A DNA stretch of 64,000 bases from Candidatus Omnitrophota bacterium (lineage in GTDB: Bacteria; Omnitrophota; Gorgyraeia; JABMRG01; JAFGKX01). Positions 2,934 through 46,885 of the stretch are shown here, one piece after another (the first letter of the stretch is position 1; every line of letters starts with the position of its first letter). A program made the position numbers and the translations under genes. Location of the stretch: assembly GCA_043797125.1 (NCBI GenBank), contig JAZDPX010000023.1, positions 3,098 through 67,097 of the forward strand, written 5' to 3'. The notes below the pieces were generated by a model. It was not told the origin of the DNA, did not search any database, and was given only the letters and a program-made list of their open reading frames with translations.

Positions 2934-2969
2934 TTATTAAAAGAGAAAGTGTTTTTTGTTAATTACATT

Positions 2970-3638: not shown

Positions 3639-3655
3639 TGCGCGGGGATTATACG

Positions 3656-5553: not shown

Positions 5554-5556
5554 AAT

Positions 5557-6600: not shown

Positions 6601-6625
6601 CAGCCAAACAGGAGGAAGCGGTATT

Positions 6626-7609: not shown

Positions 7610-7636
7610 ATAGATAATAGAGGAATTAATAAGAAG

Positions 7637-9576: not shown

Positions 9577-9585
9577 GAGAAAGCT

Positions 9586-10590
9586 ATGATTATTAGCAGA
9601 ACACCTTTTCGCATATCATTTTTTGGAGGAGGAACAGATTATCCTGCCTGGTATGAAGAAAATGGCGGCATGGTGCTGGCAACCACCATAAACAAATATT
9701 GTTATATCTCATGCAGATATCTGCCTCCCTTTTTTGAATATAAATCAAGAATCCTCTATTCTCAGACAGAGAATATTAACCGCATTTCTGAAATTCGGCA
9801 CCCGTCTGTAAGGGAATGCTTACGATTTATGAAAATTAAAAAAGGGGTGGAGATTCATCAAGACGGAGATTTACCTGCCCGCACCGGCCTTGGTTCAAGC
9901 TCCTCTTTTACCGTCGGGCTGCTCCATACGCTATATGCCCTTAAAGGTATTATGCCCACAAAGAGACAGCTGGCGCTCGACGCCTTTCATCTTGAGCAGC
10001 ATGTGCTGAAGGAGAACGTAGGTTCTCAGGATCAGGTTTTGGCTGCCTTCGGCGGATTTAATCTGATAGAGTTTGGGGGGCCGCAACATTTTCATGTCCG
10101 GCCCGTTACCGTCTCGCCTCACAGATTAGTTTTGCTCCAGAAGCACCTGATGCTTTTTTTTACCGGTTTTACACGGAAGGCCTCTGAGATTGCCGCAGAG
10201 CAGATTAAAAACATGCCGCGAAAAAAGAAAGAATTAAAAGCGATGCTTCAATTGTTAGAGAGAGCCTTGAAAGTTTTAAACAGCGATACCGATATCGCCA
10301 AATTCGGAAAAATTTTGCATGAGAACTGGCAAATCAAGCGCCGCCTATCAGCAAAAATATCCACTCCGGCCATAGATGAGATTTACTCTACTGCTTTGCG
10401 CGCAGGCGCTTTAGGCGGAAAGCTATTAGGCGCCGGAGGCGGCGGTTTTATGTTGCTCTTTGCAGAGCCGGATGCCCAGCCTAAAATAAGGAAAAAACTA
10501 AAGGATATTCTGTATGTGCCTTTTCGGTTTGAGAACTTAGGCACCCAAATTATTTTTAACACTCCATATGAGCTTTTGGGAGAGGCTTAA
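9586..10590 (+). CDS. GHMP-family sugar kinase (D-glycero-D-manno-heptose 7-phosphate kinase HddA/WcbL-like)
   Basis: N-terminal RTPFRISFFGGGTD, GHMP motif II PARTGLGSSSS and C-terminal GAGGGGF. This resembles the heptose kinases of GDP-heptose pathways. Confidence 0.6.
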   Translation: MIISRTPFRISFFGGGTDYPAWYEENGGMVLATTINKYCYISCRYLPPFFEYKSRILYSQTENINRISEIRHPSVRECLRFMKIKKGVEIHQDGDLPARTGLGSSSSFTVGLLHTLYALKGIMPTKRQLALDAFHLEQHVLKENVGSQDQVLAAFGGFNLIEFGGPQHFHVRPVTVSPHRLVLLQKHLMLFFTGFTRKASEIAAEQIKNMPRKKKELKAMLQLLERALKVLNSDTDIAKFGKILHENWQIKRRLSAKISTPAIDEIYSTALRAGALGGKLLGAGGGGFMLLFAEPDAQPKIRKKLKDILYVPFRFENLGTQIIFNTPYELLGEA

Positions 10591-11784
10591 ATGAAGATTC
10601 CGTTTGGGACAGTATCCATTACTAATAAATCAAAGGAGTTAATAAAAAAAATCCTTGATTCAAAAAGGGTTTCCAGCGGTAAATATGTAAGAGAATTTGA
10701 AGAGAAATTCGCCGGATTAATCGGAGCAAAAGAGGCGGTGGCTTTAAGTAGCGGGACCGATGCGGACGCCCTTGCCTTAGCCGTGCTTTATGATTTCGGC
10801 GCTAAACGCGCAGATGAAGTTATTGTTCCTGCGTTGTCCTTTGTCTCTACGGGGAACGCCGTTTTACAGGCTGGGTTTAAGCCCGTCTTTGTGGATGTTG
10901 ACAAAAACACCTTGAATATTGATCCGGAGAAAATTAAAAATGCAATTACGGAAAAAACAAGAGCGATAATGCCAGTTCATCTTATGGGTAAGCCGGCAGA
11001 GATGGATTCAATTAACAAAATAGCCAAACAGTGCAATTTATATGTAATTGAGGATGCCGCAGAAGCGCACGGCGCCGTTTATAAAAATAAAAATGCCGGA
11101 ACTCTCGGAGATATGGGGGCGTTCAGTTTGTATGTCGCCCATATTATCACGACGGTAGAAGGCGGAATTGTTACAACTGACAAAAAAGATTTTGCAGAAA
11201 TTTTAAGATCGCTCCGGTCTCACGGAAGGGCCTGTAAATGCAGGGTATGCGTGCTGAATACGGCTTCCAGCTACTGCCCCGAAAGATTTAGGTATAAGGA
11301 AAACGTTGACACGAGGTTTATTTTCGAAAGAATCGGCTATTCTGCTAAAATGAATGAATTAGAAGCAGCCGTCGGGCTTGGCAATATCGAAATATATCAA
11401 AGCATCCTTAAAAAGCGAAGGGAAAATCTTAAGTATTTAATGGAGAGATTCAAAAAATTTAGGCCTTATCTTGCAAGCGCGGAAGAAGAACAATATGAAA
11501 CAATCGGTCCCCACGCATTTTACGTTATCCTTCAGGAAAGAGTTAAGTTCAGCAGAGACGAATTTGCAAGTTTTTTAGAAAAACGCGGCATTGATACAAG
11601 GACATTATTTTCATCCATACCAACACAATGCGCCGGTTTTAAGTTCTTAGGGTATCGTCTGGGCGATTTTCCAAATGCAGAGTATATAGGAAACAACGGG
11701 CTTCACATCGGAGTGCATCAGGATTTGGGAAAAAAAGAACTCGATTATTTTATTAAGGCCGTGGAGGATTTCTTAAAAGAGTGA
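10591..11784 (+). CDS. DegT/DnrJ/EryC1-family PLP/PMP enzyme, probably an NDP-4-keto-6-deoxy-sugar 3-dehydrase (E1/ColD-like) rather than an aminotransferase
   Basis: DegT fold (VIVPALSFVSTGNAV). In the SFxxxK-NIT-EGG active-site block the Schiff-base Lys is replaced by His (SLYVAHIITTVEGG). There is a Cys-rich insertion CKCRVCVLNTASSYC. Confidence 0.55.
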   Translation: MKIPFGTVSITNKSKELIKKILDSKRVSSGKYVREFEEKFAGLIGAKEAVALSSGTDADALALAVLYDFGAKRADEVIVPALSFVSTGNAVLQAGFKPVFVDVDKNTLNIDPEKIKNAITEKTRAIMPVHLMGKPAEMDSINKIAKQCNLYVIEDAAEAHGAVYKNKNAGTLGDMGAFSLYVAHIITTVEGGIVTTDKKDFAEILRSLRSHGRACKCRVCVLNTASSYCPERFRYKENVDTRFIFERIGYSAKMNELEAAVGLGNIEIYQSILKKRRENLKYLMERFKKFRPYLASAEEEQYETIGPHAFYVILQERVKFSRDEFASFLEKRGIDTRTLFSSIPTQCAGFKFLGYRLGDFPNAEYIGNNGLHIGVHQDLGKKELDYFIKAVEDFLKE

Positions 11785-21069: not shown

Positions 21070-22575
21070 ATGTTAGCTATTTTAATCATAGCCCTTATTT
21101 ACCATATTTTTTCTATAATTACAGCGCCGGTCAGTTCGTTTTATCGGTCAGACGAACCTTTTTACGCGTGTATAACTAAATCTTTAGCCAGCGGCGAAGG
21201 CAATAAGGCAATATATACATCAGGTAATCCAGCTTATAAAAAATATCCGCCAGTTTATCCTTTTATGCTTTCTTTGTTATGGCGTATTTCTCCAAATTTT
21301 CCCGAGAATATGTTTTTACTGAGGCAGCTTAATATCTGCCTGGGGCTGCTTATTATTTTTTTGTATTTTTCCCTTTTGAAGAAATGGCTTAATTCGAGTT
21401 TAAAGGTTTTCTTAGTCCTGCTTCTTTTCGTCAGCAATCCTTTTTTTATTATGTTTTCAAACTCCATCCTTAGCGATGTGCTATATATGTTGTTACTCTT
21501 ACTGTTATTTTACAAAATTGAGGATTATAAGAAAGGAAAGGTTTTTTTGCTAATTACTGCATTAGCGCTTATTTTATTTTTTACGCGCACTTTAGGTTTA
21601 GTAGTGGCAGGTTCTATTGGCGCAGTTTTTTTATTGAAAAAAGATTTTAAAAGAGCCGGTTATTTTTCTGCAGCCGTTTTCCCCTGCATTCTTGCATGGC
21701 TTATTTATACAAATTCAGGAGATGGATATGGGTACATTAATGAATTCCTGTCACATCATCATAATCTTTTAGAATTTTATTTTACAATAGCGCACAACTT
21801 AAGGGACGTATGCGTACGCACTCTGCCTCTGAACGTTTTCCCGGCTTTGCAAAGCAAAACAATTTTGGGATTTTTTATCGAGAATAACCTTATTTTTCTA
21901 CATAGATTTTTTTGCGTGGTGCTTTCTTTCGTTGTTATATTTGGCTGTTATGCGTTTCTTAGAAAAAACAGGTCCCATTTTTTAACGCTCTACGTAATTT
22001 TTTATGCTGCAATCTTAATTTTCTGGCGCTGGGATTCCACACGATATGTTTTTGGCCTTCTTCCGTTTCTATATGTATTTCTTTTTTCCGGAATAGGAAA
22101 ACTGTTTTCAAAAACATGGATCACTGTTCTTGTTTTCGTTGTTATACTCACTGGAAATTTAAAAAGAGATGTCCATATGTTAATTGATGTAAAGCAATAT
22201 GGTCATCCGACAGGCAAGTGCGTGGCCGATGGCTGGAAAAAAGACAGCTGCCTTTTAGATTGGATAAAGAGAAATACGGACAAGGATGAAATCTTAGCTA
22301 GCACGCCTCGGTATATAGAGTATTATCTTTATTGCGAAAGAAGGACAGTTGATTATACCTGCAGAGAAGGTGAAAACCTCGGTTTTTACATAAAGCACAA
22401 TGTTAGATATATAATTCAGCATCCCTACGAAGATGTTTTGACTTCGGAAGATATAGGCATAACAAAGATGGAACGGTTTAGGCAGAAATATCCCGAGAAT
22501 ATAAAATTAGTTTTTAAATGCGAAGATTCCAGGTATGCTGTCTATGAAATTATACACAAAGAGGGGGCGCTATGA
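21070..22575 (+). CDS. polytopic integral membrane protein (GT-C / ArnT-PMT-like glycosyltransferase candidate)
   Basis: ~12 hydrophobic segments. The start is moved to ATG 21070 (MLAILIIALIYHIF) because the track ORF 20914 start overlaps the upstream GT4 gene by ~150 nt. Confidence 0.5.
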   Translation: MLAILIIALIYHIFSIITAPVSSFYRSDEPFYACITKSLASGEGNKAIYTSGNPAYKKYPPVYPFMLSLLWRISPNFPENMFLLRQLNICLGLLIIFLYFSLLKKWLNSSLKVFLVLLLFVSNPFFIMFSNSILSDVLYMLLLLLLFYKIEDYKKGKVFLLITALALILFFTRTLGLVVAGSIGAVFLLKKDFKRAGYFSAAVFPCILAWLIYTNSGDGYGYINEFLSHHHNLLEFYFTIAHNLRDVCVRTLPLNVFPALQSKTILGFFIENNLIFLHRFFCVVLSFVVIFGCYAFLRKNRSHFLTLYVIFYAAILIFWRWDSTRYVFGLLPFLYVFLFSGIGKLFSKTWITVLVFVVILTGNLKRDVHMLIDVKQYGHPTGKCVADGWKKDSCLLDWIKRNTDKDEILASTPRYIEYYLYCERRTVDYTCREGENLGFYIKHNVRYIIQHPYEDVLTSEDIGITKMERFRQKYPENIKLVFKCEDSRYAVYEIIHKEGAL

Positions 22576-23591
22576 TAAATATAGGCATTATAGGTTGTGG
22601 AGAGTGGGGCCCTAACCACTTAAGGGTTTTTTCGCAGCTGCATAATTCGTGTGTACGGATGGCCGCTGACCTAAACAGCGTAAGGCTTGAGTCGATGCAG
22701 AAGCTGTATCCAAACACCATATTTACTAAAGATTACAAAGAGATTTTGGATAATGATGCAATTGATGCAGTTTGTATAGCGGTTCCTACCTCTGCGCATT
22801 ATAGAATCGCAAGGGAGGCATTATCGCGAGGAAAACATGTTTTATGCGAAAAACCATTAGCATTAAAAATTGGGCATTGTGAGGATTTAATCAAAATTGC
22901 AGGAAAAAAGAAACTTATATTGATGGTAGGATATATATATCTGTTTAACGAGAGCATTAGAAAAATTAAAGATTATATAGACCAAGGAAAACTAGGAGAC
23001 ATTCAGTATATGCACTCGGAAAGGGCAAATCTTGGTCCGTTCCGTTATGATATAAATGCCCTTTGGGATTTAGCTCCGCACGATGTTTCTATCTTTAACT
23101 ATCTTTTAGGCTCTATGCCTATTGAAGTTTCAGCATGCGGCGCTAAGTATTTATTTAAAGACAGAGAAGATTTGGCGTTTATCACCTTGAGGTATAAAAA
23201 CAATGTTACTGTGAATATACATGTTAGCTGGTTAAGCCCCAGAAAGGTTAGGGATATAACAATCATAGGAGACGAAAAAATGCTTGTCTTTAATGATATA
23301 GACGAAAAAATCCCTATTATGATTTATAACAAACATGTAGAAAAAACAAAGAAATATTATAGTACATTTAAAGAATTTTTGATTTTAGCTAAATGGGGCA
23401 GGACAATAAGGCCAGCAATAAAGATATCAGAGCCGCTCTTAGTGCAGGATTTATATTTCTTAGAGTCCATAAGAAACAAGGAACAGCCTGAGATAGCGAA
23501 TGGCGAGTTCGCATTAAATGTAACAAAAATTTTAATTGATATTCAAAAATCAATGGATAAAAATGGTACGCCGATAAAAATTATTAAATGA
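22572..23591 (+). CDS. Gfo/Idh/MocA-family NAD(P)-dependent oxidoreductase (NDP-sugar dehydrogenase candidate)
   Basis: INIGIIGCGEWG Rossmann N-terminus and EKPLA motif typical of the family. Confidence 0.7.
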   Translation: MINIGIIGCGEWGPNHLRVFSQLHNSCVRMAADLNSVRLESMQKLYPNTIFTKDYKEILDNDAIDAVCIAVPTSAHYRIAREALSRGKHVLCEKPLALKIGHCEDLIKIAGKKKLILMVGYIYLFNESIRKIKDYIDQGKLGDIQYMHSERANLGPFRYDINALWDLAPHDVSIFNYLLGSMPIEVSACGAKYLFKDREDLAFITLRYKNNVTVNIHVSWLSPRKVRDITIIGDEKMLVFNDIDEKIPIMIYNKHVEKTKKYYSTFKEFLILAKWGRTIRPAIKISEPLLVQDLYFLESIRNKEQPEIANGEFALNVTKILIDIQKSMDKNGTPIKIIK

Positions 23592-23628: not shown

Positions 23629-24780
23629 ATGGCTTATAAAGTAATACTTCCTAAATTAGGAACTAATGCCGAAAGGGCAACTGTAGTTTCGTGGCTTAAA
23701 AAAGAAGGCGAGAGTGTGTTAAAAAATGAGGTGTTAGCAGAGGTAAGTACGGATAAGGCAACATTTGAAGTGGAAGCAGAATATAGTGGTATATTAAGAA
23801 AGATTTTATGCCCGGTTGATTCCGAGATTGATATTACAAAAACCATTGCCATCATAGCAGAGCCAGGAGAAGATATAACCGAAATAGAAGAGCAGGTGAA
23901 AAAAGAAAAGGCTGACACGGCTCAGCAGTTTGCTAAACAGGTCTGGAGAATCTGGTTTGAAGGCAAAGCCCAGCCAAGCGTTAAGTTATCAGAACCGAAT
24001 ATTAGAATGTCTCCCGCCGCAAGGGAATTAGCCAGAACCAAAAATATAGATTTGGAAACATTAACTACGCACTACAGAAATAAAAAGGAAACACTTGAGG
24101 TTAAAGATATAGTTAATTTTATCGACTCTGAAAAAATAGTTGTCTACGGTGCAGGCCTTGGTCTAAAACAGGCTTTGGAAATAATACGCAATTATTACGA
24201 TATTAAAATAGTGGGCCTGATCGATGATAACCCTGAGCTGAAAAACAAAATCATCTGCGGTTATAAGGTGTTAGGAGGATTTGATGACCTTGCAAAAGCC
24301 TACAAAAATCAAGAGTTCTCAGGCGTGGCATTATCATTTCATTCCGAAACAAGAAGAAAAATTTTTATAAAGCTAAAAAATGAAATACCGCAGATTCGTA
24401 TAAAAACCCTTATAGACTCAAAGGCCATTGTTTCTCCAGACGCAGAAATAGGGGACGGTGTATTTATTGAGGCCGGTACCATAATAGGCCCCGGAGTAAA
24501 AATAGGAGATGGCTCAGTAATAGACTTAGGCGCTGTTGTTTGCCATGATTGTTTCATAGGAGAGTTTTCGCATCTCTCCCCAGGTTGCGTGCTATCAGGG
24601 ATAGTTTGCTTAAAAGAAAATGTTTTGATAGGTGCCGGGGCCAGCGTTAATTCCACCGTAACTATAGGGAAAAATGTAATTATTACTCCTGGGTCAGCGG
24701 TTATGAACGATGTGCAAGACAAAACAATAGTTAATGGCATACCGGCAGTAGTTATAGGAGAGAGCAGGCGTGGAGAATGA
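23629..24780 (+). CDS. lipoyl-domain / E3-binding (PSBD) domain / NeuD-PglD-type hexapeptide sugar N-acyltransferase fusion protein
   Basis: N-terminal EVSTDKATFEVEAEYSGIL has the lipoyl-lysine TDKA signature. MSPAARELARTKNIDLETL matches the peripheral-subunit-binding domain. The C-terminal ~210 aa have a NeuD-like Rossmann half (KIVVYGAGLGLKQ) and a left-handed beta-helix hexapeptide half. Confidence 0.7.
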   Translation: MAYKVILPKLGTNAERATVVSWLKKEGESVLKNEVLAEVSTDKATFEVEAEYSGILRKILCPVDSEIDITKTIAIIAEPGEDITEIEEQVKKEKADTAQQFAKQVWRIWFEGKAQPSVKLSEPNIRMSPAARELARTKNIDLETLTTHYRNKKETLEVKDIVNFIDSEKIVVYGAGLGLKQALEIIRNYYDIKIVGLIDDNPELKNKIICGYKVLGGFDDLAKAYKNQEFSGVALSFHSETRRKIFIKLKNEIPQIRIKTLIDSKAIVSPDAEIGDGVFIEAGTIIGPGVKIGDGSVIDLGAVVCHDCFIGEFSHLSPGCVLSGIVCLKENVLIGAGASVNSTVTIGKNVIITPGSAVMNDVQDKTIVNGIPAVVIGESRRGE

Positions 24781-25708
24781 TGTCCAGATTAATTTAAAAT
24801 ATTTTTCAAAAATGCTTCTTATAAGGTATTTTGAGGAGAAAATTGACTGGCTGTTTAGCCGCGATATGCTTGCAGGAACAGCGCACCTATGCATCGGCCA
24901 GGAAGCAGTAGCGGTGGGAGCTGTATCAGCAATCAATTCAGATGATTTTGTTATCAGCACCCACAGGGGGCATGGGCATTTATTGGCAAAAGGAGCAGAC
25001 CCAAAGCTCCTTTTTTGCGAAATAATGGGCAAAGAGACGGGGTATTGCAAAGGTAGGGGCGGAACGCAGCATCTCTGCGTAAGGGATATTAACTTTTTGG
25101 GCACAAACGGCATAACGGGTGGCGGCATGCCTATTGCAACTGGAGTTGGCATGGCTTTAAAATTACAGAAAAGACAACAAGTAGTCTTATGTTTTTTCGG
25201 AGACGGAGCTGCTAACCAGGGCACATTCCATGAATCTTTAAATATGGCAAGCATATGGAAAGTGCCGGTCGTATATATTTGCGAAAATAACTTGTATGCT
25301 ATGTCAGTATCTGTAAAAGAATCGATGAATATAACAGATATAGCTGTGCGAGCTGGAAGCTATGGCATACCCGGCGAAATAGTTGACGGCATGGATGTGG
25401 TAAAGGTGAAAAGTTTAGTAGCAGCTGCTGTGCAACGCGCCAGGGAAGGGGAGGGCCCGACTTTAATCGAAGCAAAAACTTACAGATTTTGCGGACACTC
25501 TAAGAGCGATGCGCAAACATATCGCTCAAAAGAAGAAAAGGAATTATGGAAAATGAGGGATCCTTTGACAACACTCGAAAACAATCTTATTAGCAGCGGA
25601 TTAAACGCGCAGACTTTAAATTCTTTAAAAGAAAAAGCCAAAAGCGCCATAGAGGAATCTTATAATTTTGCAGTATCAGATACCCTCCGCAACAACGAGA
25701 AAATATGA
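24770..25708 (+). CDS. 2-oxoacid dehydrogenase E1 alpha-subunit homolog (TPP-binding)
   Basis: HLCIGQEAV, HRGHGH, GDGAANQG and CENNLYAMS motifs. Second E1-alpha paralog in the window. Confidence 0.75.
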   Translation: MENDVQINLKYFSKMLLIRYFEEKIDWLFSRDMLAGTAHLCIGQEAVAVGAVSAINSDDFVISTHRGHGHLLAKGADPKLLFCEIMGKETGYCKGRGGTQHLCVRDINFLGTNGITGGGMPIATGVGMALKLQKRQQVVLCFFGDGAANQGTFHESLNMASIWKVPVVYICENNLYAMSVSVKESMNITDIAVRAGSYGIPGEIVDGMDVVKVKSLVAAAVQRAREGEGPTLIEAKTYRFCGHSKSDAQTYRSKEEKELWKMRDPLTTLENNLISSGLNAQTLNSLKEKAKSAIEESYNFAVSDTLRNNEKI

Positions 25709-26679
25709 AGACAATAACTTACGGCCAGGCAATAAATGAAGCATTATATGAGGAAATGCAAAGAGACAGTGCAGTTGTCCTTTTGGGCGAGGATATTACG
25801 ATTTACGGTGGGGCATTCGGCGTTACTAAGGACCTATGGAAGATTTTTGGAAAAGATAGAGTTATAAATACCCCAATATCTGAAAATAGTTTCGTCGGCG
25901 CAGCCACAGGAATGGCGATGATGGGGTTGCGCCCCGTAGTTGAGATTATGTTTATGGATTTTATAACATTAGCGTGCGATCAAATCATCAACCAAGCTGC
26001 AAAATTACCCTATCTTTATGCCGGTCAAGTAAGCGTACCGATGGTCATACGTACGCCAGCAGGTGCAGGCAGAGGCTATGGCGCTAGCCACTCGCAAAGC
26101 TTAGAGCGCCTATTTATGGGGATACCAGGCATAAAAATAGTCTCTCCTTATACGCCTTACGAAGCAAAGGGGCTTTTAAAGTCCGCGATAAGGTCTGATA
26201 GCCTGATTATTTTCGTCGAACATAAATTATTGTATTCAAGACAGGGGCAAGTGCCTGAAACAGAATGTCTTTTAGAGATTGAGAAGGCCCAGGTTTTAAA
26301 AGAAGGCAAAGACGTTACGCTTATTTCTTATTCAAAGATGCTTGATTGCTGTCTGGAAGCGGCAGATGCGTTGTCAGGCGATGTAGACCTGGAGATTATT
26401 AATTTGCGTAGTTTGCGGCCCATAGATATCGATACTATAGCAAAATCCGTTAAGAAGACAGGGCGCGTTGTAATTGTTGAGGAAGGCCATAAGGCGGGCG
26501 GGGTAGGTTCTGAAATTTGCAGCCAGATTGCCGAAAGCTGCCTTGAATATTTGAATGGGAGAATAGTTAGAGTAGCATCCGAGGAAACGCCTATACCCTC
26601 TTCGAGGGTCCTTGAGGATGCAATATTGCCGAATAGAGACAAAATCATCGATGCCGTGAAAAAAACTTTTGTTTGGTAG
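25705..26679 (+). CDS. 2-oxoacid dehydrogenase E1 beta-subunit homolog
   Basis: MDFITLACDQIINQAAKLPYLYAG and a C-terminal transketolase-C-like domain. ATGA overlap with the alpha subunit. Confidence 0.75.
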   Translation: MKTITYGQAINEALYEEMQRDSAVVLLGEDITIYGGAFGVTKDLWKIFGKDRVINTPISENSFVGAATGMAMMGLRPVVEIMFMDFITLACDQIINQAAKLPYLYAGQVSVPMVIRTPAGAGRGYGASHSQSLERLFMGIPGIKIVSPYTPYEAKGLLKSAIRSDSLIIFVEHKLLYSRQGQVPETECLLEIEKAQVLKEGKDVTLISYSKMLDCCLEAADALSGDVDLEIINLRSLRPIDIDTIAKSVKKTGRVVIVEEGHKAGGVGSEICSQIAESCLEYLNGRIVRVASEETPIPSSRVLEDAILPNRDKIIDAVKKTFVW

Positions 26680-26694
26680 TTTGCTAAAGACAGC

Positions 26695-27405
26695 ATGAAA
26701 ATAGAAAAAAAGTTAGACGTCATAGCCAGAAATTATAAACCAGAAAAAGATTTTGATAAATATCTGATAAGGTACGGAGCGGGCTATATTATAAAAAATA
26801 TTCGCAGAACAAATGTTCTTGAAATAGGTTGCGCATCCGGGATTATGACGGATATTTTAGTGCGTAATTTCAAGAAAGTGGCCATAGTAGAGGGAGCCCA
26901 AAAATATGCTCAGCAGATGAAAAGAAAATATGGCAGCAAGATAAAATGTTACATTAGCGTAGTTGAACGTTTTGAAACAAAGGAAAAATTTGATAATATA
27001 ATTGCTGCTCATTTAATTGAGCACCTGCACAACCCCATAAAGCAGCTTAAAAGAATGAAAAAATGGTTAAAGCCAAACGGTTTTTTACACATTATTGTGC
27101 CTAATGCAAACTCACTAAATCGTTTATTCGGACTTAAGCTGGGGATTATAAGAAATGTAAACGAACTTACTCCTCGCGATATTAAACTCGGCCACAAGAG
27201 AGTATATAATAAAAAAATGTTATTTCAGCATATCAGACGGGCGGGCTTGAGCGTCGCTGAGATAAAAGGTATTTATTTAAAGCCTTTGCCTAATAATCGC
27301 ATGATAAGATATAGCAAAAAGACAATACACGCATTTTATGAAATTGGAAACATGGTGCCCAGCGATTTATGCAATGAACTGTATGCGAGGTGCGCGGTCT
27401 CATGA
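26695..27405 (+). CDS. class I SAM-dependent methyltransferase
   Basis: VLEIGCASGIMTDIL motif I. 236 aa. Confidence 0.6.
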   Translation: MKIEKKLDVIARNYKPEKDFDKYLIRYGAGYIIKNIRRTNVLEIGCASGIMTDILVRNFKKVAIVEGAQKYAQQMKRKYGSKIKCYISVVERFETKEKFDNIIAAHLIEHLHNPIKQLKRMKKWLKPNGFLHIIVPNANSLNRLFGLKLGIIRNVNELTPRDIKLGHKRVYNKKMLFQHIRRAGLSVAEIKGIYLKPLPNNRMIRYSKKTIHAFYEIGNMVPSDLCNELYARCAVS

Positions 27406-28115
27406 AATGTCTTTTAACTATGTTTTGTTATAACGAAAAAGGCAAAATTGAAAAGGTCCTTGAAAAATTCAGCGATTATGGCATCTACGATGCTGCGGTA
27501 ATGGATGATGGTTCAACAGATGGCAGCTTAGCCGATATAGGCAATTTTTTTCCCAAGGTTACCGTATTAAAGAACTCCGTTAACATGGGAGCAGGTTACA
27601 GCGTAAGAAAAGTCTTGTATTATGCCAGAGATAAGGGCTATGATGCTGCTATTTTTGTTGCCGGCAACGATAAGGACAACCCGAATGACGTCAAAAAATT
27701 AATAGCGACCATGGAAGAAGGCTTCGATTTTGTTCAGGGATCCAGGTATTTGCCGGACGGCAAATACGGTAATATGCCACTTCATAGAACAATTGGAACT
27801 AAGCTTATTCATCCCATGATTTTTTCGTTATTTACAGGAAGAAAGCTTACGGATACTACTAATGGTTTTCGTGCGGTAAAATTGTCTATTCTCGAAGATA
27901 AAAGAATTAATTTGGATCAAGAGTGGCTTGACAGATACGGACTAGAACCCTATTTGTATTATAAAGCTATTGTTTTAGGCTATAGAGTGAAGGAAGTTCC
28001 TGTTACAAAAATTTATCCTGAAGGCCAAAAGAAGTATACCAAGATGCGCCCCATAGTTGACTGGTGGAGTATTTTAAAACCTTTATTTTATTTAAAGCTA
28101 GGGATAAAAAATTAG
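27390..28115 (+). CDS. family 2 glycosyltransferase (polyprenyl-phosphate sugar synthase-like)
   Basis: MDDGSTDGS DxD region; short GT2-A protein. Sits directly upstream of a GT-C-like membrane protein. Confidence 0.6.
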   Translation: MRGLMKCLLTMFCYNEKGKIEKVLEKFSDYGIYDAAVMDDGSTDGSLADIGNFFPKVTVLKNSVNMGAGYSVRKVLYYARDKGYDAAIFVAGNDKDNPNDVKKLIATMEEGFDFVQGSRYLPDGKYGNMPLHRTIGTKLIHPMIFSLFTGRKLTDTTNGFRAVKLSILEDKRINLDQEWLDRYGLEPYLYYKAIVLGYRVKEVPVTKIYPEGQKKYTKMRPIVDWWSILKPLFYLKLGIKN

Positions 28116-28134: not shown

Positions 28135-29544
28135 ATGTACACCAATAGAAATTCTATATTTATAGCATTAAATGTCACTTTTCTTATTGCCTTATTTATT
28201 GTTTTTTACCCGCCAATATATGCTATTCAGGATGAAGCCGATTACTTTGGTTTTGCCTATAAGCTAAAATGCGGCACTATGTTTTTTGACCCTTTAAGTT
28301 CCCATAAGATTTTTTTTAATGGAGAACACTATGTTGATATGTATCCTCCCGGCATGGCGATTCTGCTTTTGCCATTTGCGTTGATTTACCTGAAGGCGTT
28401 TTTTCTTTTAAATCCTCTTTTGCATTTTATTGGTTTTGTTTTTTTTACCAAATCCTTGAGGCTGCTTAAATTGGATATCAGGCTTTCTCTGCTTTATTTA
28501 TTTTTTCCAACAGTTATTTTGTACAGCCGCACCATAATGCCAGACGCCGCAATAGGCTCGTTGATTTCCATAGCAGTGTATTTTTATTTAAAAGGCGGCA
28601 GGCGTTGCAATTTTTTTTCAGGGCTTATTTTTGGTTTCCTTGTTTTAATAAAGAATGCGTTGTTGATTATCCCGGTTATATTTCTCTTATGTCTTACGTA
28701 CAAACAATATTTTAAAAAGCAAACCGGCCAAAATAGCGCATCGAGTTTTTTTATTGGGCTTTTGCCGTTTACCCTCGCAGCTGTAATTTATAATTTAGCC
28801 ATGTTTAAAAATATAATAAGCACCATGGTGGCCGGCGGCGGCACGCTGTCACCCATGTTTTTACCTGGTCATTTTTTATTTTATTTTATTTTTTTGGTTT
28901 TGTTTTACCCGTTCATGTTTTTTGCCCCGCTTATGTACAAGCGGGAGGGAAGGTTGGAATTCATTTTGTCTGCCCTGATATATGTTATTTTTATAAGTAT
29001 GTGGTCTTTTATACAGCCTGCAGATGGAAATTTAGCTAGGCTGATAGTAGGCAGCAGATACCTGACGGCAGTATTGCCTATATATTTATTAACTTATTCA
29101 GATTTTATAGATAGGATGTTTTCTAAGCTTGAGGAAAATATAAAAACTCCCATTTTTATAGTGGCAACTCTAATGCTTATCTATTCCGCATATCAAATAA
29201 ATGCGCATCACCAGAGATATCTTGAACAGCAGCTTCATTACAAAGATACGCTGTATAATAATACCCGCGAAGGCGCTTTTATCGTGTGCAACGGCCAGGC
29301 CAAAGAATTACTGCAAAAGGCATGGGGGGATAGAAAATGGCTCACCTTTACGGATTCTCAGCTTTCAAAATATGTCAAACTATACGATGAATTTTATATA
29401 GTTGCGTTCTTAAGAAAAGATAAGTTGAAGGGATTTGCAGAAGACGCAAAAAGGAAAAATGCTTTAGTCAAGGAATATAATGCTATGCTTGTAGCAGAGA
29501 TCAAGCAGCCTTATATGCTTCAGATATACAAAGCGAACAAGTAA
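28135..29544 (+). CDS. polytopic integral membrane protein (GT-C-like glycosyltransferase candidate)
   Basis: Multiple TM helices and a C-terminal soluble tail. Paired with the upstream GT2, like GtrB/Gtr-type or ArnC/ArnT-type pairs. Confidence 0.45.
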   Translation: MYTNRNSIFIALNVTFLIALFIVFYPPIYAIQDEADYFGFAYKLKCGTMFFDPLSSHKIFFNGEHYVDMYPPGMAILLLPFALIYLKAFFLLNPLLHFIGFVFFTKSLRLLKLDIRLSLLYLFFPTVILYSRTIMPDAAIGSLISIAVYFYLKGGRRCNFFSGLIFGFLVLIKNALLIIPVIFLLCLTYKQYFKKQTGQNSASSFFIGLLPFTLAAVIYNLAMFKNIISTMVAGGGTLSPMFLPGHFLFYFIFLVLFYPFMFFAPLMYKREGRLEFILSALIYVIFISMWSFIQPADGNLARLIVGSRYLTAVLPIYLLTYSDFIDRMFSKLEENIKTPIFIVATLMLIYSAYQINAHHQRYLEQQLHYKDTLYNNTREGAFIVCNGQAKELLQKAWGDRKWLTFTDSQLSKYVKLYDEFYIVAFLRKDKLKGFAEDAKRKNALVKEYNAMLVAEIKQPYMLQIYKANK

Positions 29545-30932
29545 TGAATATTTTATTAATGATACCCATAAACAAAAGCTATGTAATCGCTCCAAGTTTA
29601 GGTTTGGGTTATTTAGCGGCTGTATTAAGAAAAGGTAATTCAGTAAACATACTACATTGCATAAAAGAAAGCTTTAATTTCAATAAGTTTAGAAAATATT
29701 TGAACGAAAGCAACTTCGATTTAATAGGAATGCAGATGATGTCTTACGACCTTTTGCCGGCCAAAACGCATATAGATATAATTCGTAATTCTAAGTGTAA
29801 AAATAGCATTATTGTTGTGGGCGGCCCACATCCTTCAGGTGACCCAAAAGGCACTTTGAATTATTTGCAGGGAGCAGATTTCGCTTTTAAAGGAGAGGCA
29901 GAAATAGGATTAAACCGTTTTGCAGAATTAGCCAAAGGCAAAAACTTAAAAGAAGATAGGCTGGAAGGTATATCTGGTTTAGTATGGCGAAAAGACAATG
30001 GCGTTGCGATTAATGAAGTTGAATATATTGATGACCTTGATTCAATACCGTTTCCTGCGTGGGATATTATAAAGCCGCAAGAATATCCGCCAGCCCCGCA
30101 CGGCGCCTTTTTTAAAAGCCTTCCCGCAGCGCCGATTATAATAACCCGCGGTTGCCCTTTTATTTGCACATTTTGTGCAGGTAAATGCATAACAGGAAAT
30201 AAGGTTAGAAAGAGAAGCGCTAATAATGTTATGGAAGAGATAAAATATCTGATAAAAGATTTTGGTATTTATGAATTTATGATAGAAGATGAAAACTTTA
30301 CGCTGCATAAAAATTTAGTATTAGAATTCTGTGAGGCGCTAATAAAAAATAATTTGAGCATCGGTTGGAGTTGTCCATCGGGAGTTAGATTAGATACATT
30401 AGATCTAGAGATGATAAAAATGATGGAGAAATCAGGATGTCATTCTTTAAGCGTTGGCATAGAGTTTGGAAGTCAGCGCATGCTCGATTTTACTAAAAAG
30501 AATATAACGCTAGATAAAATAAAGGAAAAAATAACGCTGATAAGGAAAACCAGCATAAAAATAACTGGGTTTTTTATGATGGGAATGCCAATGGAGACAG
30601 AACAGGATATGAAGCGAACAGCGGTATTTTCCAGGGAGCTTGACATAGACAGAGCCCAGTTTAACAACTTTATGCCTCTTCCGGGCAGTGCTTTATATGA
30701 AAACTTGCTTGGAGCTGATGCATTGGACGCAGAGGCTACAAAACATTTTTTTGTCCACGATGTAGGATATGTGCCGGAATGCCTTACGGCTAAAAAATTA
30801 AAAGCCCTGCAAAGGCAGGCATATCTTAAATTTTATTTAAGGCCTAAAACGATGTGGAATATTCTAAAAGAAATAAAGGATTATAACCACCTAATGAAGC
30901 TTTTGTATCGTTTTTACGATGCTATAATATGA
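29544..30932 (+). CDS. B12-binding domain radical SAM enzyme
   Basis: ITRGCPFICTFCAG (CxxxCxxC) after an N-terminal B12-binding-like domain. 462 aa. Confidence 0.7.
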   Translation: MNILLMIPINKSYVIAPSLGLGYLAAVLRKGNSVNILHCIKESFNFNKFRKYLNESNFDLIGMQMMSYDLLPAKTHIDIIRNSKCKNSIIVVGGPHPSGDPKGTLNYLQGADFAFKGEAEIGLNRFAELAKGKNLKEDRLEGISGLVWRKDNGVAINEVEYIDDLDSIPFPAWDIIKPQEYPPAPHGAFFKSLPAAPIIITRGCPFICTFCAGKCITGNKVRKRSANNVMEEIKYLIKDFGIYEFMIEDENFTLHKNLVLEFCEALIKNNLSIGWSCPSGVRLDTLDLEMIKMMEKSGCHSLSVGIEFGSQRMLDFTKKNITLDKIKEKITLIRKTSIKITGFFMMGMPMETEQDMKRTAVFSRELDIDRAQFNNFMPLPGSALYENLLGADALDAEATKHFFVHDVGYVPECLTAKKLKALQRQAYLKFYLRPKTMWNILKEIKDYNHLMKLLYRFYDAII

Positions 30933-36772: not shown

Positions 36773-37819
36773 ATGGCAATAAAAAAACAAGGTTATGCAG
36801 TTTTTTCCAACAGAATTCACCGGCTGGCAAACGAAGAACGTTTTCCGTTGCGGGCGATGTTTGAATTGACTTACCGCTGTAATTTTAAATGCATCCATTG
36901 CTATAATACTGAAACGCAGAAGAAGACAAAGCCCCAGAATGAGTTAACTACCAGGCAAGTATTCGATATTCTTACGCAGCTTAAAAGAATAGGATGTCTT
37001 TACTTAGGCTTTACGGGTGGCGAGATATTTTTGCGCCATGATATACTGGATATTATTATATATGCGCGTAAATTAGGCTTTGAGCTTATTCTTTTGACCA
37101 ACGGCTCGCTTATAAATAGAAAGGTAGCCGACAGGTTAAGTAAGCTTAGATTGAATAAAATAGATATAACCGTGCATGCTATGAATGATGGTATTTTTGA
37201 TAAGATTACACAAATACCCGGTTCTGCTAAAAAGGTATTTCGGGCAATAAAGTTGCTTTACAAAAGAAATATTCCGTTGGGTCTTAAAAGTTGCGGAATG
37301 CGCGAAAACAAAGATGAAGTTGTCAAAATACAGAAATTTGCCAGCGGTATAAAAGCCATTTACCGATTAAATACAGAGTTATTAGCCTGCAATGACCGCG
37401 GCAAGACGCCGTTTGAACATCGTCTTTCTGCCGTAGAACTTTATTCTCTATACAAGGATTACTATCCAGAAGGTTTTGCTTTTAGGGCCGTAAAAAAAGA
37501 AAAATCAGGGCATATTTTTCCCTGCGGGGTAGGCAAAACAGATTTGACCATTAACCCTTTCGGAGGATTACAGTTATGTTTGGCAATAGATTATCCAAAA
37601 TATGATATATTGAAAGGCGGATTAGCCTTAGGCTGGCAAAAGATAAAAGAATTTGTTGATGAGCTCAAAGCGCCAGCAGGCTGGGTATGTGCCAAATGTG
37701 ATTTGGTTCCTTTTTGCAGGCGGTGTCCGGCCAAAGGATATTTGGAAGACGGAAATTTTTTTAGCTGTAATCATTATAGCCGCCAGCAAGCAGAATTCAT
37801 CAAGGAAATGCAGGCATAG
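36773..37819 (+). CDS. radical SAM / SPASM-domain peptide-modifying enzyme (paralog 1 of 3)
   Basis: FELTYRCNFKCIHCYN (CxxxCxxC) and a C-terminal Cys cluster CAKCDLVPFCRRCPAKGY (SPASM/twitch auxiliary cluster). Confidence 0.7.
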   Translation: MAIKKQGYAVFSNRIHRLANEERFPLRAMFELTYRCNFKCIHCYNTETQKKTKPQNELTTRQVFDILTQLKRIGCLYLGFTGGEIFLRHDILDIIIYARKLGFELILLTNGSLINRKVADRLSKLRLNKIDITVHAMNDGIFDKITQIPGSAKKVFRAIKLLYKRNIPLGLKSCGMRENKDEVVKIQKFASGIKAIYRLNTELLACNDRGKTPFEHRLSAVELYSLYKDYYPEGFAFRAVKKEKSGHIFPCGVGKTDLTINPFGGLQLCLAIDYPKYDILKGGLALGWQKIKEFVDELKAPAGWVCAKCDLVPFCRRCPAKGYLEDGNFFSCNHYSRQQAEFIKEMQA

Positions 37820-37851
37820 CAGTAGTAAAACTAAAAAACGGAGGTGGTATT

Positions 37852-38064
37852 ATGGCAAATAAAAAGAAATTTAAGCCGCAAGTTACGCGGGTTAAGCTTA
37901 ACCCTGAACAGGCAGTGTTGGGATGCAGCTGTTATGATATTGGGATATACCATATTGACCATTTAGAAACACGAAGTTTTAATGCGTGCATCCCTGAAGC
38001 AAAAGAGTATGATACGCGCGCTACTCATTGCGTAGGAGACCCTGCGGGGATTCTTACAAGCTAA
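37852..38064 (+). CDS. candidate RiPP precursor peptide (70 aa, 4 Cys, C-terminal Ser)
   Basis: Strong SD GGAGGTGG 5 nt upstream of ATG. Lys-rich leader-like N-terminus MANKKKFKPQVTRVKLNPEQAVLG. Core CSCYDIGIYHIDHLETRSFNACIPEAKEYDTRATHCVGDPAGILTS. Sits between two SPASM radical SAM genes. Confidence 0.5.
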   Translation: MANKKKFKPQVTRVKLNPEQAVLGCSCYDIGIYHIDHLETRSFNACIPEAKEYDTRATHCVGDPAGILTS

Positions 38065-38065
38065 A

Positions 38066-39142
38066 TTGATGAAGGAGATAGACAAATTTAAATTTTATAG
38101 CCATCTTAGAAGCAGGAGTAGCCACCAGCCCCTAATTGGGCAACTGGAGCTTACGTATAGGTGTGGGCTTAATTGTATTCATTGCTATTGCAAAGGAAGT
38201 GAAGATAAAGAAAAGGAATTGGCTACTCGAGACTGGAAGCAAATATTGGATATGCTGCAGAAAGAAGGCTGTGTTTGGCTTAATCTTACCGGAGGAGATC
38301 CTTTAATTCGGGATGACTTTCTGGAAATTTACTCTTATGCCAAAGCTAAATGTTTTATTGTTTCAATTTTCAGCAGCGGATATGGTTTTAACTGTGAAAC
38401 TATCGAATATCTGGTCAAAATACCGCCCCATTCCATAGAGATTACATTAAACGGCATTACTCAAAGCACTTATGAATCCATAACACAGACAAAAGGTTCT
38501 TTTTTCGCGGCTATGCGCAACATAAGGTTATTGGCCTCAAAAAACTTACCGCTTATTATAAAAACGAACTGCATAAAGCAAAACCGGCATGAATTAGTGA
38601 GGATAAAACATTTCACTGAAGAGCTTTTAGGCAAACCATACAATAAGCATTTTTTTAGATATGATCATACTATACATCCAAGACTAAACGGAGACAAAAC
38701 ACCGTTAAGTTACAGGCTTTCTTTTGAAGAAATAGCCGAAACGAAAAAAGAGGATAAGGATATATGGCAGGAGTATCACAAGGCGTTAAAAGCCCGCACT
38801 CACAGTTTACCAAGAGAGGCAGATTTTCTTTACCAGTGCAATTCCTGGAAGCGGCAATTTATTATAGACCCTTACGGTAAGCTAAGACTATGTACCTTGT
38901 CAAAAAAACATAATATCGATTTAAAAATCGTATCCTTTAGGGAGGGATTTTATAATATACTTCCCGGGGTTTTAGAAGAGAGGTTTAAAACACCCTCCAA
39001 ATGCCGCTTATGCCATTTAAGGTCTTTATGCTATAATTGCCCTGCCAGAGCGTATCTTGAAACAGGTAACGAAGAGTTGCCGGTGGAATATTTTTGTCAA
39101 TTCGCGGAACAAACATACAGATACGAAAAGAATGAATTATAG
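38066..39142 (+). CDS. radical SAM / SPASM-domain peptide-modifying enzyme (paralog 2 of 3)
   Basis: LELTYRCGLNCIHCY and C-terminal CRLCHLRSLCYNCPARAY. The track start is TTG 38066; the ATG is at 38069. Confidence 0.7.
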   Translation: MMKEIDKFKFYSHLRSRSSHQPLIGQLELTYRCGLNCIHCYCKGSEDKEKELATRDWKQILDMLQKEGCVWLNLTGGDPLIRDDFLEIYSYAKAKCFIVSIFSSGYGFNCETIEYLVKIPPHSIEITLNGITQSTYESITQTKGSFFAAMRNIRLLASKNLPLIIKTNCIKQNRHELVRIKHFTEELLGKPYNKHFFRYDHTIHPRLNGDKTPLSYRLSFEEIAETKKEDKDIWQEYHKALKARTHSLPREADFLYQCNSWKRQFIIDPYGKLRLCTLSKKHNIDLKIVSFREGFYNILPGVLEERFKTPSKCRLCHLRSLCYNCPARAYLETGNEELPVEYFCQFAEQTYRYEKNEL

Positions 39143-40055
39143 GATTAGATTAAAAATAGCCGGCGTCTTAATTCAGATGGAAAGCAAGCACCCGTTGCAG
39201 AAGTTTAATCTTAAGCAGCAGAGACAAAGAAGACATGGACGCTTCCATAATTTTTTCTATCATGGTAGGCAAAAGCCGCAAGTCAGGATTAAGATAGAAA
39301 TAAAAGATAAATTACCAAAAATAAGCAAAAAGGCAAAAGAGCTTTTTCTTACTAAAAATTTTGACGGAATAGGAACGAATTGGCGCCTTCTAACATACAA
39401 GGGCGGTTATATTTACAAAAATTTTGTTAAGGCCAAAAAACAGATTATGACGATGGACAAAAATTTTAAAAGCATAACCGTTTTTCTTTTGCCAAAAAAC
39501 AAACAACGCGTGTGGGATATGGCGGACATCGTATATGATTTTTTGCAAATTTTGCTAATAAATTATTTTGCGCGTTATAAATTAGGCATTTTTGCGCATG
39601 CCATGGGAGTGAAAGATGTTAATAAAAACGGCTTTCTTTTTTTAGGAGAGTCTGGCGCAGGCAAAAGCACAATGGCCAGAATATGGCACAAGCATACAAA
39701 GGCGCAGATTTTAAACGATGATCGCGTAATTATACGGCGGGAAAACAACGGCAATTTTTTTATTTATGGCACGCCGTGGCATGGAAATTTTAGCGATTAT
39801 CTTGGCGCGCGCATGGAAAAAGCCAGGCTGGTCAAATTATTTTTTATATATCATAACTCCCATAACGAAGCAAAGCGCATTGTTCAGAAGGCGGCATTTA
39901 GATTTTTTTATCCTGCAATATTTCCCACATTTTGGGATAAGGAATATTTGGAAAACATCGCCTCATTATCCTGTGATTTGTTGGATAGGGTGCCTTGTTT
40001 TCGTTTAGGATTTGTTAATGATAAAAATATAATTGAATTTGTAAGAAAGAAATGA
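39132..40055 (+). CDS. HPr-kinase-related P-loop kinase (lasso-peptide-kinase-like)
   Basis: Walker A FLGESGAGKST and the HprK C-terminal-domain-like fold order. The start is moved to the in-frame ATG 39132 (or 39177) because the track ORF 39057 start overlaps the upstream gene. Confidence 0.5.
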   Translation: MNYRIRLKIAGVLIQMESKHPLQKFNLKQQRQRRHGRFHNFFYHGRQKPQVRIKIEIKDKLPKISKKAKELFLTKNFDGIGTNWRLLTYKGGYIYKNFVKAKKQIMTMDKNFKSITVFLLPKNKQRVWDMADIVYDFLQILLINYFARYKLGIFAHAMGVKDVNKNGFLFLGESGAGKSTMARIWHKHTKAQILNDDRVIIRRENNGNFFIYGTPWHGNFSDYLGARMEKARLVKLFFIYHNSHNEAKRIVQKAAFRFFYPAIFPTFWDKEYLENIASLSCDLLDRVPCFRLGFVNDKNIIEFVRKK

Positions 40056-46797: not shown

Positions 46798-46828
46798 TTG
46801 ACTTTATATAATTTTGTATGTTAATATA
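46798..46828 (+). promoter_or_regulatory. possible sigma70-type promoter (TTGACT-N18-TAATAT) for the export operon
   Basis: In the AT-rich 140-nt intergenic region before the Wzc-like gene. Weak. Confidence 0.3.
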
Positions 46829-46885
46829 TTAAATTATGTAATAATATTTCTAAGACTTACTAGTTTTAAAAAAAAGGATATAAAA

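Follow-up and report, generated by a model that had tools for sequence, protein, structure and literature searches.

The stretch of DNA analyzed here (the window) comprises 64,000 nucleotides from a Candidatus Omnitrophota metagenome-assembled genome (MAG) and is part of a contig of 133,936 bp. Its GC content is low (~38%), and nearly all genes from position 1 to ~33.6 kb lie on the + strand and were assigned functions in glycan biosynthesis by domain searches. This cluster includes glycosyltransferases, short-chain dehydrogenase/reductase (SDR) epimerases and dehydratases, methyltransferases, B12-radical-S-adenosylmethionine (SAM) enzymes, and a Bac_transf priming transferase. Our subject is a module of three genes in this cluster, which encode a protein that joins a lipoyl domain to a PglD-type sugar acyltransferase domain, followed by the alpha and beta subunits of a thiamine diphosphate (ThDP)-dependent E1 enzyme. 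The existing database name of the fusion protein is only “NeuD/PglB/VioB family sugar acetyltransferase.” An initial annotation, made from the letters of the DNA, had proposed that the module moves an acyl group from a 2-oxoacid, carried on lipoamide, onto an amino sugar. The module and the oxidoreductase gene directly upstream of it, which had also been annotated correctly, contain the following features.

22572..23591, + strand: Gfo/Idh/MocA NAD-dependent sugar oxidoreductase (Pfam GFO_IDH_MocA, E 1e-26)
23629..24780, + strand: fusion protein with a lipoyl domain, a linker domain resembling a peripheral-subunit-binding domain (PSBD), a PglD_N domain, and a left-handed beta-helix N-acyltransferase domain (Pfam, NCBIfam, AlphaFold2)
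23629..23859, + strand: lipoyl domain, aa 1-77 (PF00364), with predicted lipoyl-lysine Lys43 (codon 23755..23757)
24001..24123, + strand: degenerate PSBD, aa 125-165, IRMSPAARELARTKNIDLETL... (PF02817, below gathering score)
24133..24777, + strand: PglD_N nucleotide-sugar-binding domain (aa 169-248) and hexapeptide beta-helix (aa 249-383) (TIGR03570; PerB fold)
24544..24546, + strand: codon of the predicted catalytic His306 (aligns with PerB His141)
24770..25708, + strand: ThDP-dependent E1 alpha (PF00676, E 1e-86)
25705..26679, + strand: E1 beta (Transket_pyr and Transketolase_C; NF006667)

The fusion protein and its E1 partners

The open reading frame (ORF) for the fusion protein encodes 383 aa and is preceded by a ribosome-binding site (AGAGGG) located 7 nt upstream. 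The E1 alpha gene, which begins with GTG, overlaps the stop codon of the fusion gene by 11 nt, and the E1 beta gene overlaps the E1 alpha gene by 4 nt. These overlaps indicate that the three genes constitute an operon with translational coupling. A scan for promoters and terminators returned counts at chance level, which fits a long operon without proving one.

Searches with hidden Markov models recovered all three domains that the initial annotation had assigned to the fusion protein. The Pfam Biotin_lipoyl model matches residues 5-76 (E 3.4e-15), and Lys43 is found in the sequence VSTDKATFEV, where the TDKA motif is that expected for the lipoylatable Lys at the beta-turn tip of an E2 lipoyl domain. 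The Pfam E3_binding model (PF02817) aligns with residues 125-146 (E 2.5e-4). This match is weak, its score of 21.6 bits falling just short of the gathering score of 23.7, and we describe the segment as a degenerate PSBD. The PSBD is canonical in a distant member of the family (P0120, from locus L046). We presume that the degenerate form serves as a docking site for E1 and/or E3.

The remainder of the protein matches PglD_N at residues 169-248 (E 4e-6) and Hexapep (E 5.5e-16), and residues 169-373 pass the NCBIfam model for NeuD/PglB/VioB proteins (TIGR03570, 169.7 bits versus a cut-off of 160.8). No E2 catalytic domain (PF00198, 2-oxoacid_dh, chloramphenicol acetyltransferase [CAT] fold, DHRxxDG motif) was found in the fusion by Pfam at E <= 0.01. 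Likewise, NCBIfam equivalog models for E2 proteins align only with residues 1-165, far under their cut-offs. The claim that a NeuD/PglD-type domain is present where the E2 catalytic core would normally reside is therefore borne out: the protein is no member of the E2 family, whereas by sequence it qualifies as a NeuD/PglB/VioB protein.

The solved structures closest to the C-terminal half are the N-acetyltransferases PerB, the acetyltransferase domain of Neisseria PglB (PglB-ATD), VioB, PglD, and WeeI. The best agreement is with PerB (4ea7), both by sequence (E 2e-22) and by superposition of an AlphaFold2 model (TM-score 0.89, root-mean-square deviation 2.1 Å over 207 columns). This model has a mean predicted local distance difference test (pLDDT) score of 90.2, and only the linker formed by approximately residues 96-125 is of low confidence. 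The lipoyl domain is predicted with pLDDT values of 79-96, and the PSBD is modeled as two helices (residues 129-137 and 142-148). No entry in the PDB matches the whole architecture.

The members of the PglD, PerB, VioB, PglB-ATD, and WeeI group share the same two-domain fold (TM-scores 0.83-0.89) and the same position in amino-sugar pathways, along with a catalytic His in an H-D/E-C motif and a DD motif in the N-terminal domain. Fusion residue His306 aligns with PerB His141, which is altered in structures 4eaa and 4eab (H141N and H141A forms, with 4eaa being H141N). We take PerB His141 and PglD His125 to be the general bases of this family. Unlike the fusion protein, these enzymes are stand-alone proteins of about 200 aa that use acetyl-coenzyme A (acetyl-CoA), whereas the fusion adds a lipoyl carrier domain and has its own E1.

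Two sequence motifs characterize the fusion proteins most closely related to that of the window (the window clade). An FHSExRR motif (aa 236-243, 24334..24357) replaces the GDN-type motif that is usual in the family, and the C terminus ends with an S-R-R-G tail (aa 379-383, 24763..24777) in which Ser379 and Arg381 are present in 112 of 114 members. Neither motif is present in PerB/PglD or in the more distant clade associated with pseudaminic acid that is described below. Perhaps these motifs have a role in the docking of the lipoyl domain or in the binding of a 3-amino sugar.

The E1 alpha and beta genes directly downstream, also as first annotated, encode an alpha2beta2-type pair whose closest solved relatives are human and archaeal pyruvate dehydrogenase (PDH) E1 enzymes (E 4e-66 for human PDH E1 alpha). 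The beta subunit scores 366 bits with NF006667 (cut-off 321). In the alpha subunit, the ThDP motif GDG-(X26)-NN is present and reads GDGAANQG...ENN, and His243 occurs in a GHS motif that aligns with the human sequence YHGHSMSD. In E1 beta, Glu60 and His129 occupy the aligned positions of Glu59 and His128 of the human beta subunit. In Geobacillus E1p, the equivalent residues (beta Glu59, beta His128, and alpha His263/271) activate ThDP and catalyze reductive acetylation of the lipoyl arm, with beta Glu59 being the ThDP-activating Glu and beta His128 the proton donor in reductive acylation of lipoate (PMC2663715). Judging from these alignments, the E1 of the module appears to retain the residues for both ThDP activation and lipoate acylation. 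The nearest homologues of E1 alpha are 54-77% identical and are all environmental. By hand count, at least 27 of the best 120 homologues are encoded on contigs that are size-matched to those bearing fusion proteins, which suggests that this E1 lineage is dedicated to the fusion cassette.

Distribution and genomic context of the fusion family

The fusion family comprises more than 200 sequence clusters, and the source of every one is a metagenome or a MAG. A homologue search yielded about 110 full-length close relatives that are 40-65% identical to the window protein. We also conducted a profile search of 1.84 billion representative sequences, for which the best 150 matches were listed and the last of these still scored 212 bits. 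Among the 150 matches listed, about 110 are 340-415 aa in length, and most align end to end as one stretch. A search that began from a distant member produced another 120 relatives among the matches listed. Because the full-length architecture recurs in 114 close relatives, about 110 distant relatives, and 120 distant-clade relatives from independent assemblies, the fusion is not an assembly artifact.

Residues Lys43, His306, His315, and Asp199/Asp200 are invariant in all 114 close members. Among distant representatives (n = 110, median identity 28%), 107 retain Lys43 and 108 retain His306. The lipoyl Lys is thus strongly conserved, as the original proposal would demand. No cultured host was found when GTDB species representatives were scanned with two peptide patterns derived from the close clade only, and the full-length matches recovered came from MAGs only. 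A scan of 72,556 plasmids revealed ordinary homologues of the C-terminal domain only and no full fusion. Stand-alone proteins such as P0115 initially resembled a “split” version of the fusion with separate lipoyl and PglD-like parts, but all genes of the locus concerned (L045, 5959..11720) are fragmented. The fragments include a Gfo protein of 247 aa, a Bac_transf protein of 82 aa, and an E1 chimera, and the locus is probably a frameshift-rich long-read assembly and not a natural split.

In about 20 independent loci of the window clade and its relatives (L001-L019, L046, L048, and L049), the genes are arranged in the order Gfo/Idh/MocA, fusion, E1 alpha, E1 beta, and DegT aminotransferase, or in a close permutation of this order. 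The host MAGs represent at least 10 lineages and include Spirochaetota, Planctomycetia, Thermobaculum, Chloroflexota/Thermomicrobiales, Chloroflexia, Ignavibacteria, Zixibacteria, Deltaproteobacteria, Thermodesulfobacteriota, Gemmatimonadota, and Rubrobacter. The E1 genes accompany the fusion in 20 of the 21 close loci that have enough flanking sequence. In the exceptional locus (L010 from a Rubrobacter MAG, 2958..7451), Gfo and fusion genes are present but no E1 genes occur within 3.3 kb downstream; the sequence beyond the fusion looks non-syntenic and may reflect rearrangement or misassembly.

The DegT proteins of these modules are nearest to the C3-aminotransferases QdtB, DesV, and WbpE (for the L001 protein, E 2e-83 with WbpE and 3e-110 with QdtB). 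The window Gfo protein is matched best in NCBIfam by an archaeal UDP-GlcNAc 3-dehydrogenase (193 bits, under the cut-off of 450), and in nearly all close loci an orthologue of it (36-47% identity) is encoded beside the fusion. We predict from these similarities that the window Gfo protein is a nucleotide-sugar 3-dehydrogenase that makes the keto group for amination. The module would then follow the logic by which WbpB/WbpE/WbpD generate 3-acetamido sugars, with the fusion and E1 proteins filling the acetyltransferase position. In the known WbpB/WbpE/WbpD (WlbA/WlbC/WlbB) system, which leads to UDP-2,3-diacetamido sugars, and in the GnnA/GnnB system, a dehydrogenase of the Gfo/Idh/MocA type is likewise encoded together with a C3-aminotransferase of the DegT family and an N-acetyltransferase with hexapeptide repeats. 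They differ in that the acetyltransferase step of the module is assigned to the fusion plus E1, and its Gfo protein is only distantly related to characterized 3-dehydrogenases.

In the sole DegT-family protein encoded in the window (10591..11784), the catalytic Lys is replaced by His and a Cys-rich segment is inserted; the best matches of this protein are RfbH, ColD, and E1-dehydrase. Because this protein resembles a 3-dehydrase and not an aminotransferase, the acceptor in the window organism would either depend on a gene located beyond the 64 kb or be a different compound.

The distant clade of fusion proteins is located in gene clusters for nonulosonic acids. For example, locus L050 (3146..11178) carries a contiguous operon with the order PseB, PseC, PseF, PseG, E1 alpha, E1 beta, fusion, and PseI. 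The pseudaminic acid (Pse) proteins of this operon all score over their NCBIfam cut-offs (PseB 571, PseC 571, PseF 346, PseG 289, and PseI 506 bits). No gene for PseH or another Gcn5-related N-acetyltransferase (GNAT) was found in the operon, and loci L052 and L053 resemble L050. A metagenome scan provided 22 full-length loci of the distant clade flanked by at least 2.2 kb on either side. Both E1 genes are located within 2.5 kb of the fusion in 20 of these 22 loci, whereas in the other two they lie up to 3.6 kb away or are truncated where the contig ends, such that E1 accompanies the fusion in 22 of 22. A search for the same fusion beside E1 genes in other glycan loci, which the initial annotation had called for, thus succeeded in both clades. 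Genes resembling PseI/NeuB and PseB plus PseC are present within 9 kb in 8 of the 11 distant loci that have at least 6 kb of flank.

As far as gene content indicates, N-acetylation of the 4-amino sugar, a reaction of the kind performed by PglD-class domains, is the only canonical function absent from L050-type operons. The cassette of this clade takes the place at which PseH would have to act, after PseC and before PseG, although PseH is a GNAT enzyme with an unrelated fold and another acyl source, and the cassette is predicted to give N7-acyl Pse. The loci with 3-dehydrogenase and C3-aminotransferase genes and the Pse operons without PseH together indicate that the cassette stands in for an N-acetyltransferase in two unrelated amino-sugar pathways. 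This apparent replacement in two pathways is our strongest evidence for the function of the cassette, and it lends comparative genomic support to the idea of lipoyl-mediated acyl transfer onto an amino sugar. It would also explain why some pseudaminic acid operons have no PseH. The PseH-less loci (L050, L052, L053, and L055-L122) predict the existence of Pse derivatives with an N7-acyl group in uncultured marine and freshwater bacteria.

The PDH E1 alpha equivalog model (TIGR03182) has a cut-off of 393.85 bits, which the window E1 alpha does not reach with 364.6 bits, and the L050 protein of the pseudaminic acid clade scores only 251 bits. Given these scores, the substrate specificities of E1 may differ between clades.

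Some loci additionally carry genes for lipoate attachment or synthesis. Locus L046, whose fusion protein is 33% identical to that of the window and has the canonical PSBD, contains the gene order Gfo, DegT, E1 alpha, E1 beta, LplB, LplA, LipA, and fusion. Its ligase and synthase genes span 6113..8004, and LplB and LipA score above their cut-offs (LplB 73 bits versus 65, LipA 391 versus 203). A gene for an LplA-type ligase is found immediately upstream of the fusion in L007 (Ignavibacteria, 214..939) and L008 (Zixibacteria, 7170..7988). The near invariance of the Lys in more than 220 diverged sequences and the lipoate genes beside the fusion argue that the lipoyl group is chemically active, and we infer that Lys43 is lipoylated. 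In the organisms represented by L046, L007, and L008, the pathway of the cassette may be the main or even the sole purpose for which lipoate metabolism is maintained.

Proposed mechanism and competing explanations

We consider it probable that the three genes constitute a self-contained, CoA-independent machine for N-acylation of a nucleotide-activated amino sugar. In the proposed mechanism, the alpha2beta2 E1 with ThDP would decarboxylate a small 2-oxoacid, most likely pyruvate, and the acyl group would be passed reductively from E1 onto the lipoyl-Lys43 arm of the fusion. This arm would then swing into the PglD/PerB-type beta-helix active site, which is located about 300 residues downstream in the same, presumably trimeric, protein. 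There, His306 would deprotonate the sugar amine and the amine would attack the thioester, such that the S-acyl-dihydrolipoyl arm serves in place of the acetyl-CoA used by PglD, PerB, and VioB. Re-oxidation of the dihydrolipoyl arm would occur in trans, presumably through a housekeeping E3 that the PSBD-like segment brings in together with E1. In the window clade, the acceptor would probably be a 3-amino sugar (e.g., UDP-GlcNAc3N) provided by the Gfo 3-dehydrogenase and a C3-aminotransferase, and the product would then proceed to the small GT2 enzyme and the membrane transferase encoded downstream. Since the E1 is PDH-like, we take acetyl as the default acyl group.

LpxA and LpxD are beta-helix acyltransferases that take thioesters tethered to a carrier protein, and both appear as remote matches of the transferase domain of the fusion. 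A swap of the donor from CoA to a lipoyl group is therefore chemically plausible.

Several observations weigh against this mechanism. The transferase domain is so similar to those of acetyl-CoA users that its sequence would allow continued use of acetyl-CoA, and if the acyl group is plain acetyl there is no evident selective gain over this donor. The PSBD of the window protein scores below threshold, and only about half of the family members have the PAAR motif of this domain. The cognate C3-aminotransferase was not found in the 64-kb window. Furthermore, no gene resembling E3/Lpd was detected among those of the window and of 48 retrieved records (646 kb), in a search whose probe had no positive control. 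Re-oxidation of the arm is thus unaccounted for by linked genes, especially in organisms that are likely anaerobes.

In a more far-reaching version of the proposal, the cassette would be a general modular route for placing non-acetyl acyl groups onto amino sugars, with the E1 clade setting the identity of the acyl group. Such groups might be, for example, glycolyl, propionyl, formyl, or hydroxyacyl units that originate from 2-oxoacids or ketols without a CoA-thioester pool. We regard this extension as tentative and on balance doubtful. If true, it would explain orphan N-acyl decorations on pseudaminic and legionaminic acids and on diamino sugars.

The resemblance to acetyl-CoA users also underlies an alternative in which the beta-helix domain is an ordinary acetyl-CoA-dependent N-acetyltransferase of the PglD/PerB type, and the lipoyl and PSBD segments act only as a scaffold or regulator that tethers a separately acting E1. 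There is precedent for such an arrangement in the E3-binding protein E3BP, which is catalytically inert, bears a lipoyl group, and organizes PDH. The C-terminal domain passes the NeuD/PglB/VioB model and can be superposed on PerB with bound CoA (TM-score 0.89), we identified no residue change that excludes CoA, and there is no linked E3, all of which accord with a scaffold. However, a scaffold would not call for the near-invariant lipoyl Lys or for the lipoate ligase and lipoyl synthase genes that adjoin the fusion, E1 keeps the residues for acylation of a lipoyl group, and the compact Pse operon shows no other job for E1. We therefore judge a purely structural role for the lipoyl domain to be unlikely.

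Alternatively, the system might operate as proposed but O-acylate a hydroxyl group, as NeuD does on sialic acid, or act on a non-sugar acceptor, at least in the window organism. The lack of an aminotransferase in the 64-kb window is compatible with such an acceptor, and the NeuD branch contains O-acetyltransferases according to the family name and source names. Against this, the adjoining Gfo protein is orthologous (about 40-47% identity) to the Gfo proteins of loci that carry a C3-aminotransferase, the structures closest to the transferase domain all belong to N-acetyltransferases that share its catalytic His, and the window covers only 64 kb of the 134-kb contig. O-acylation is thus quite improbable in our estimation.

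Finally, it has been proposed that E1alpha/beta-like pairs lacking an E2 attach acetyl branches at C-4 of deoxysugars (PMC4753412), and the E1 pair of the module could in principle be such an AviB1/AviB2-type enzyme that adds a two-carbon acetyl branch from pyruvate to a keto-sugar provided by the Gfo enzyme, with acylation by the fusion being unrelated. We find this the least credible explanation, since the module E1 always adjoins a lipoyl domain, which is the canonical second substrate of E1, and since PseC uses up the sole keto intermediate of the pathway encoded by the Pse operons, in which the absent function is N-acetylation and not branching. A branching role suits better a second, lipoyl-less E1 pair (4594..6600) that lies among deoxysugar genes of the window, and the two pairs are just 37-42% identical, which is consistent with different roles.

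A 2-oxoacid dehydrogenase complex with an alpha2beta2 E1 (Geobacillus or mitochondrial PDH, or the branched-chain 2-oxoacid dehydrogenase complex [BCKDH]) is similar to our proposed machine in many respects. It has the same E1 type with the same catalytic residues, an N-terminal TDKA lipoyl domain followed by a PSBD (only a PSBD-like segment in the fusion) and an acyltransferase domain that in the fusion is probably trimeric, and adjacent, coupled genes. Our proposed machine would, in effect, be such a complex with its final acyl transfer redirected to a sugar amine. It differs in that its CAT-fold E2 domain (PF00198) is replaced in the fusion by PglD_N and the left-handed beta-helix. In addition, the predicted acceptor of the fusion is a nucleotide amino sugar instead of CoA, there is no linked E3, and the genes have a context of glycan biosynthesis. 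The module lies within a single-strand glycan cluster of about 33 kb, and its E1 pair travels with the fusion, which runs counter to a role of this pair in central metabolism or acetoin catabolism.

Regarding novelty, the initial annotation was not aware of any characterization of the architecture, and the literature gave only two precedents (AviB1/AviB2 and QncL), neither of which concerns the fusion itself. Full-text searches turned up no paper that connects PglD/NeuD-type transferases or nonulosonic acid clusters with lipoyl domains or E1 genes, and a paper on the nab cluster of Vibrionaceae does not mention E1-type genes. The closer precedent is QncN/QncL/QncM (NapB/NapD; SclQ1-4) from pathways for tetrahydroisoquinoline antibiotics, where a ThDP-dependent E1/transketolase-like pair and a lipoyl domain have been repurposed. 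These proteins make glycolicacyl-acyl carrier protein (ACP), and the lipoyl-bound glycolyl unit is delivered to ACP and not to CoA (PMC6335953). QncL retains an acyltransferase domain of the E2 type, delivers to ACP, and depends on a ketose phosphate donor, whereas the fusion protein has a beta-helix enzyme and a sugar amine as its predicted acceptor. The use of lipoate for acyl transfer onto an amino sugar therefore appears to be undescribed and to occur in many uncultured bacteria.

Lipoate is a known cofactor of only a handful of systems, namely PDH, 2-oxoglutarate dehydrogenase (OGDH), BCKDH, acetoin dehydrogenase, glycine cleavage, and rare systems of the QncL type. If our proposal is true, this cofactor would gain a new role, in a step of cell-surface glycan synthesis that is widespread and depends on lipoate. 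It would also demonstrate that a wholly different transferase fold can be equipped with the swinging-arm logic known from 2-oxoacid dehydrogenases. The proposal predicts a CoA-independent route to N-acylated nucleotide sugars, including derivatives of pseudaminic acid, which are determinants of virulence and immune recognition. A function would be provided for hundreds of proteins that are annotated just as “NeuD family acetyltransferase” or “biotin/lipoyl-containing protein.” Moreover, the cassette could offer a compact three-protein system for the chemo-enzymatic production of N-acyl sugar variants from cheap keto acids.

Neighboring genes and additional observations

Three genes follow the module on the same strand.

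26695..27405, + strand: SAM-dependent methyltransferase (Pfam Methyltransf_23, E 2e-16)
27390..28115, + strand: small GT2 glycosyltransferase, 241 aa (Pfam Glycos_transf_2)
28135..29544, + strand: polytopic membrane protein, possible GT-C type transferase (no Pfam match; weak NCBIfam match to LA_3751/LA_3752 putative glycosyltransferase, E 4e-8)

The methyltransferase gene occupies the position that the C3-aminotransferase gene has in relatives, and its membership in the module is uncertain. The best NCBIfam matches of the GT2 protein are AglJ, a dolichyl-P hexose transferase, and PpgS, all of which are under the cut-off. Similar small GT2 genes follow the module in L001, L002, L008, L048, and L049, and PMT_2/GT-C genes do so in L002, L046, and L048. 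Based on these resemblances, the GT2 protein is possibly a polyprenyl-phosphate glycosyltransferase that accepts the modified sugar, and the membrane protein would belong with the module. A lipid-linked hand-off of the modified sugar by these two proteins, similar to that by ArnC and ArnT, is a speculative extension of this assignment.

The second E1 pair of the window consists of an alpha gene (4594..5553) and a beta gene (5557..6600), and no lipoyl protein adjoins it. The surrounding deoxysugar genes (3602..11784) encode an SDR resembling GDP-fucose synthase, a 4,6-dehydratase-like protein, two more SDRs, an HddA-like sugar kinase, and the RfbH/ColD-like 3-dehydrase noted above. This region appears to specify the synthesis of a branched 3,6-dideoxy sugar of the yersiniose/eurekanate type via AviB1/AviB2-like two-carbon transfer. 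An attempt to separate the two E1 pairs of the window by their lipoyl-acylation residues was uninformative because, in alignments examined by eye, both pairs keep these residues.

The cluster is also unusually dense in radical SAM genes, including those with B12-binding domains and others (1623..2933, 29544..30932, 42748..44169, and 36773..41116). A radical SAM gene encoding about 500 aa repeatedly adjoins the module of Gfo, fusion, and E1 genes in relatives (L001, L002, L046, and L048). These enzymes may C-methylate or otherwise tailor the sugar or the acyl group.

Lastly, the ORF at 45115..46743 combines a Peptidase_S24-like N terminus with an “uncharacterised nucleotidyltransferase” domain (NTP_transf_5). 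Its neighbors are polysaccharide export genes, including those for a Wzc-like ATPase (46814..49030) and a Poly_export protein (48978..49910).

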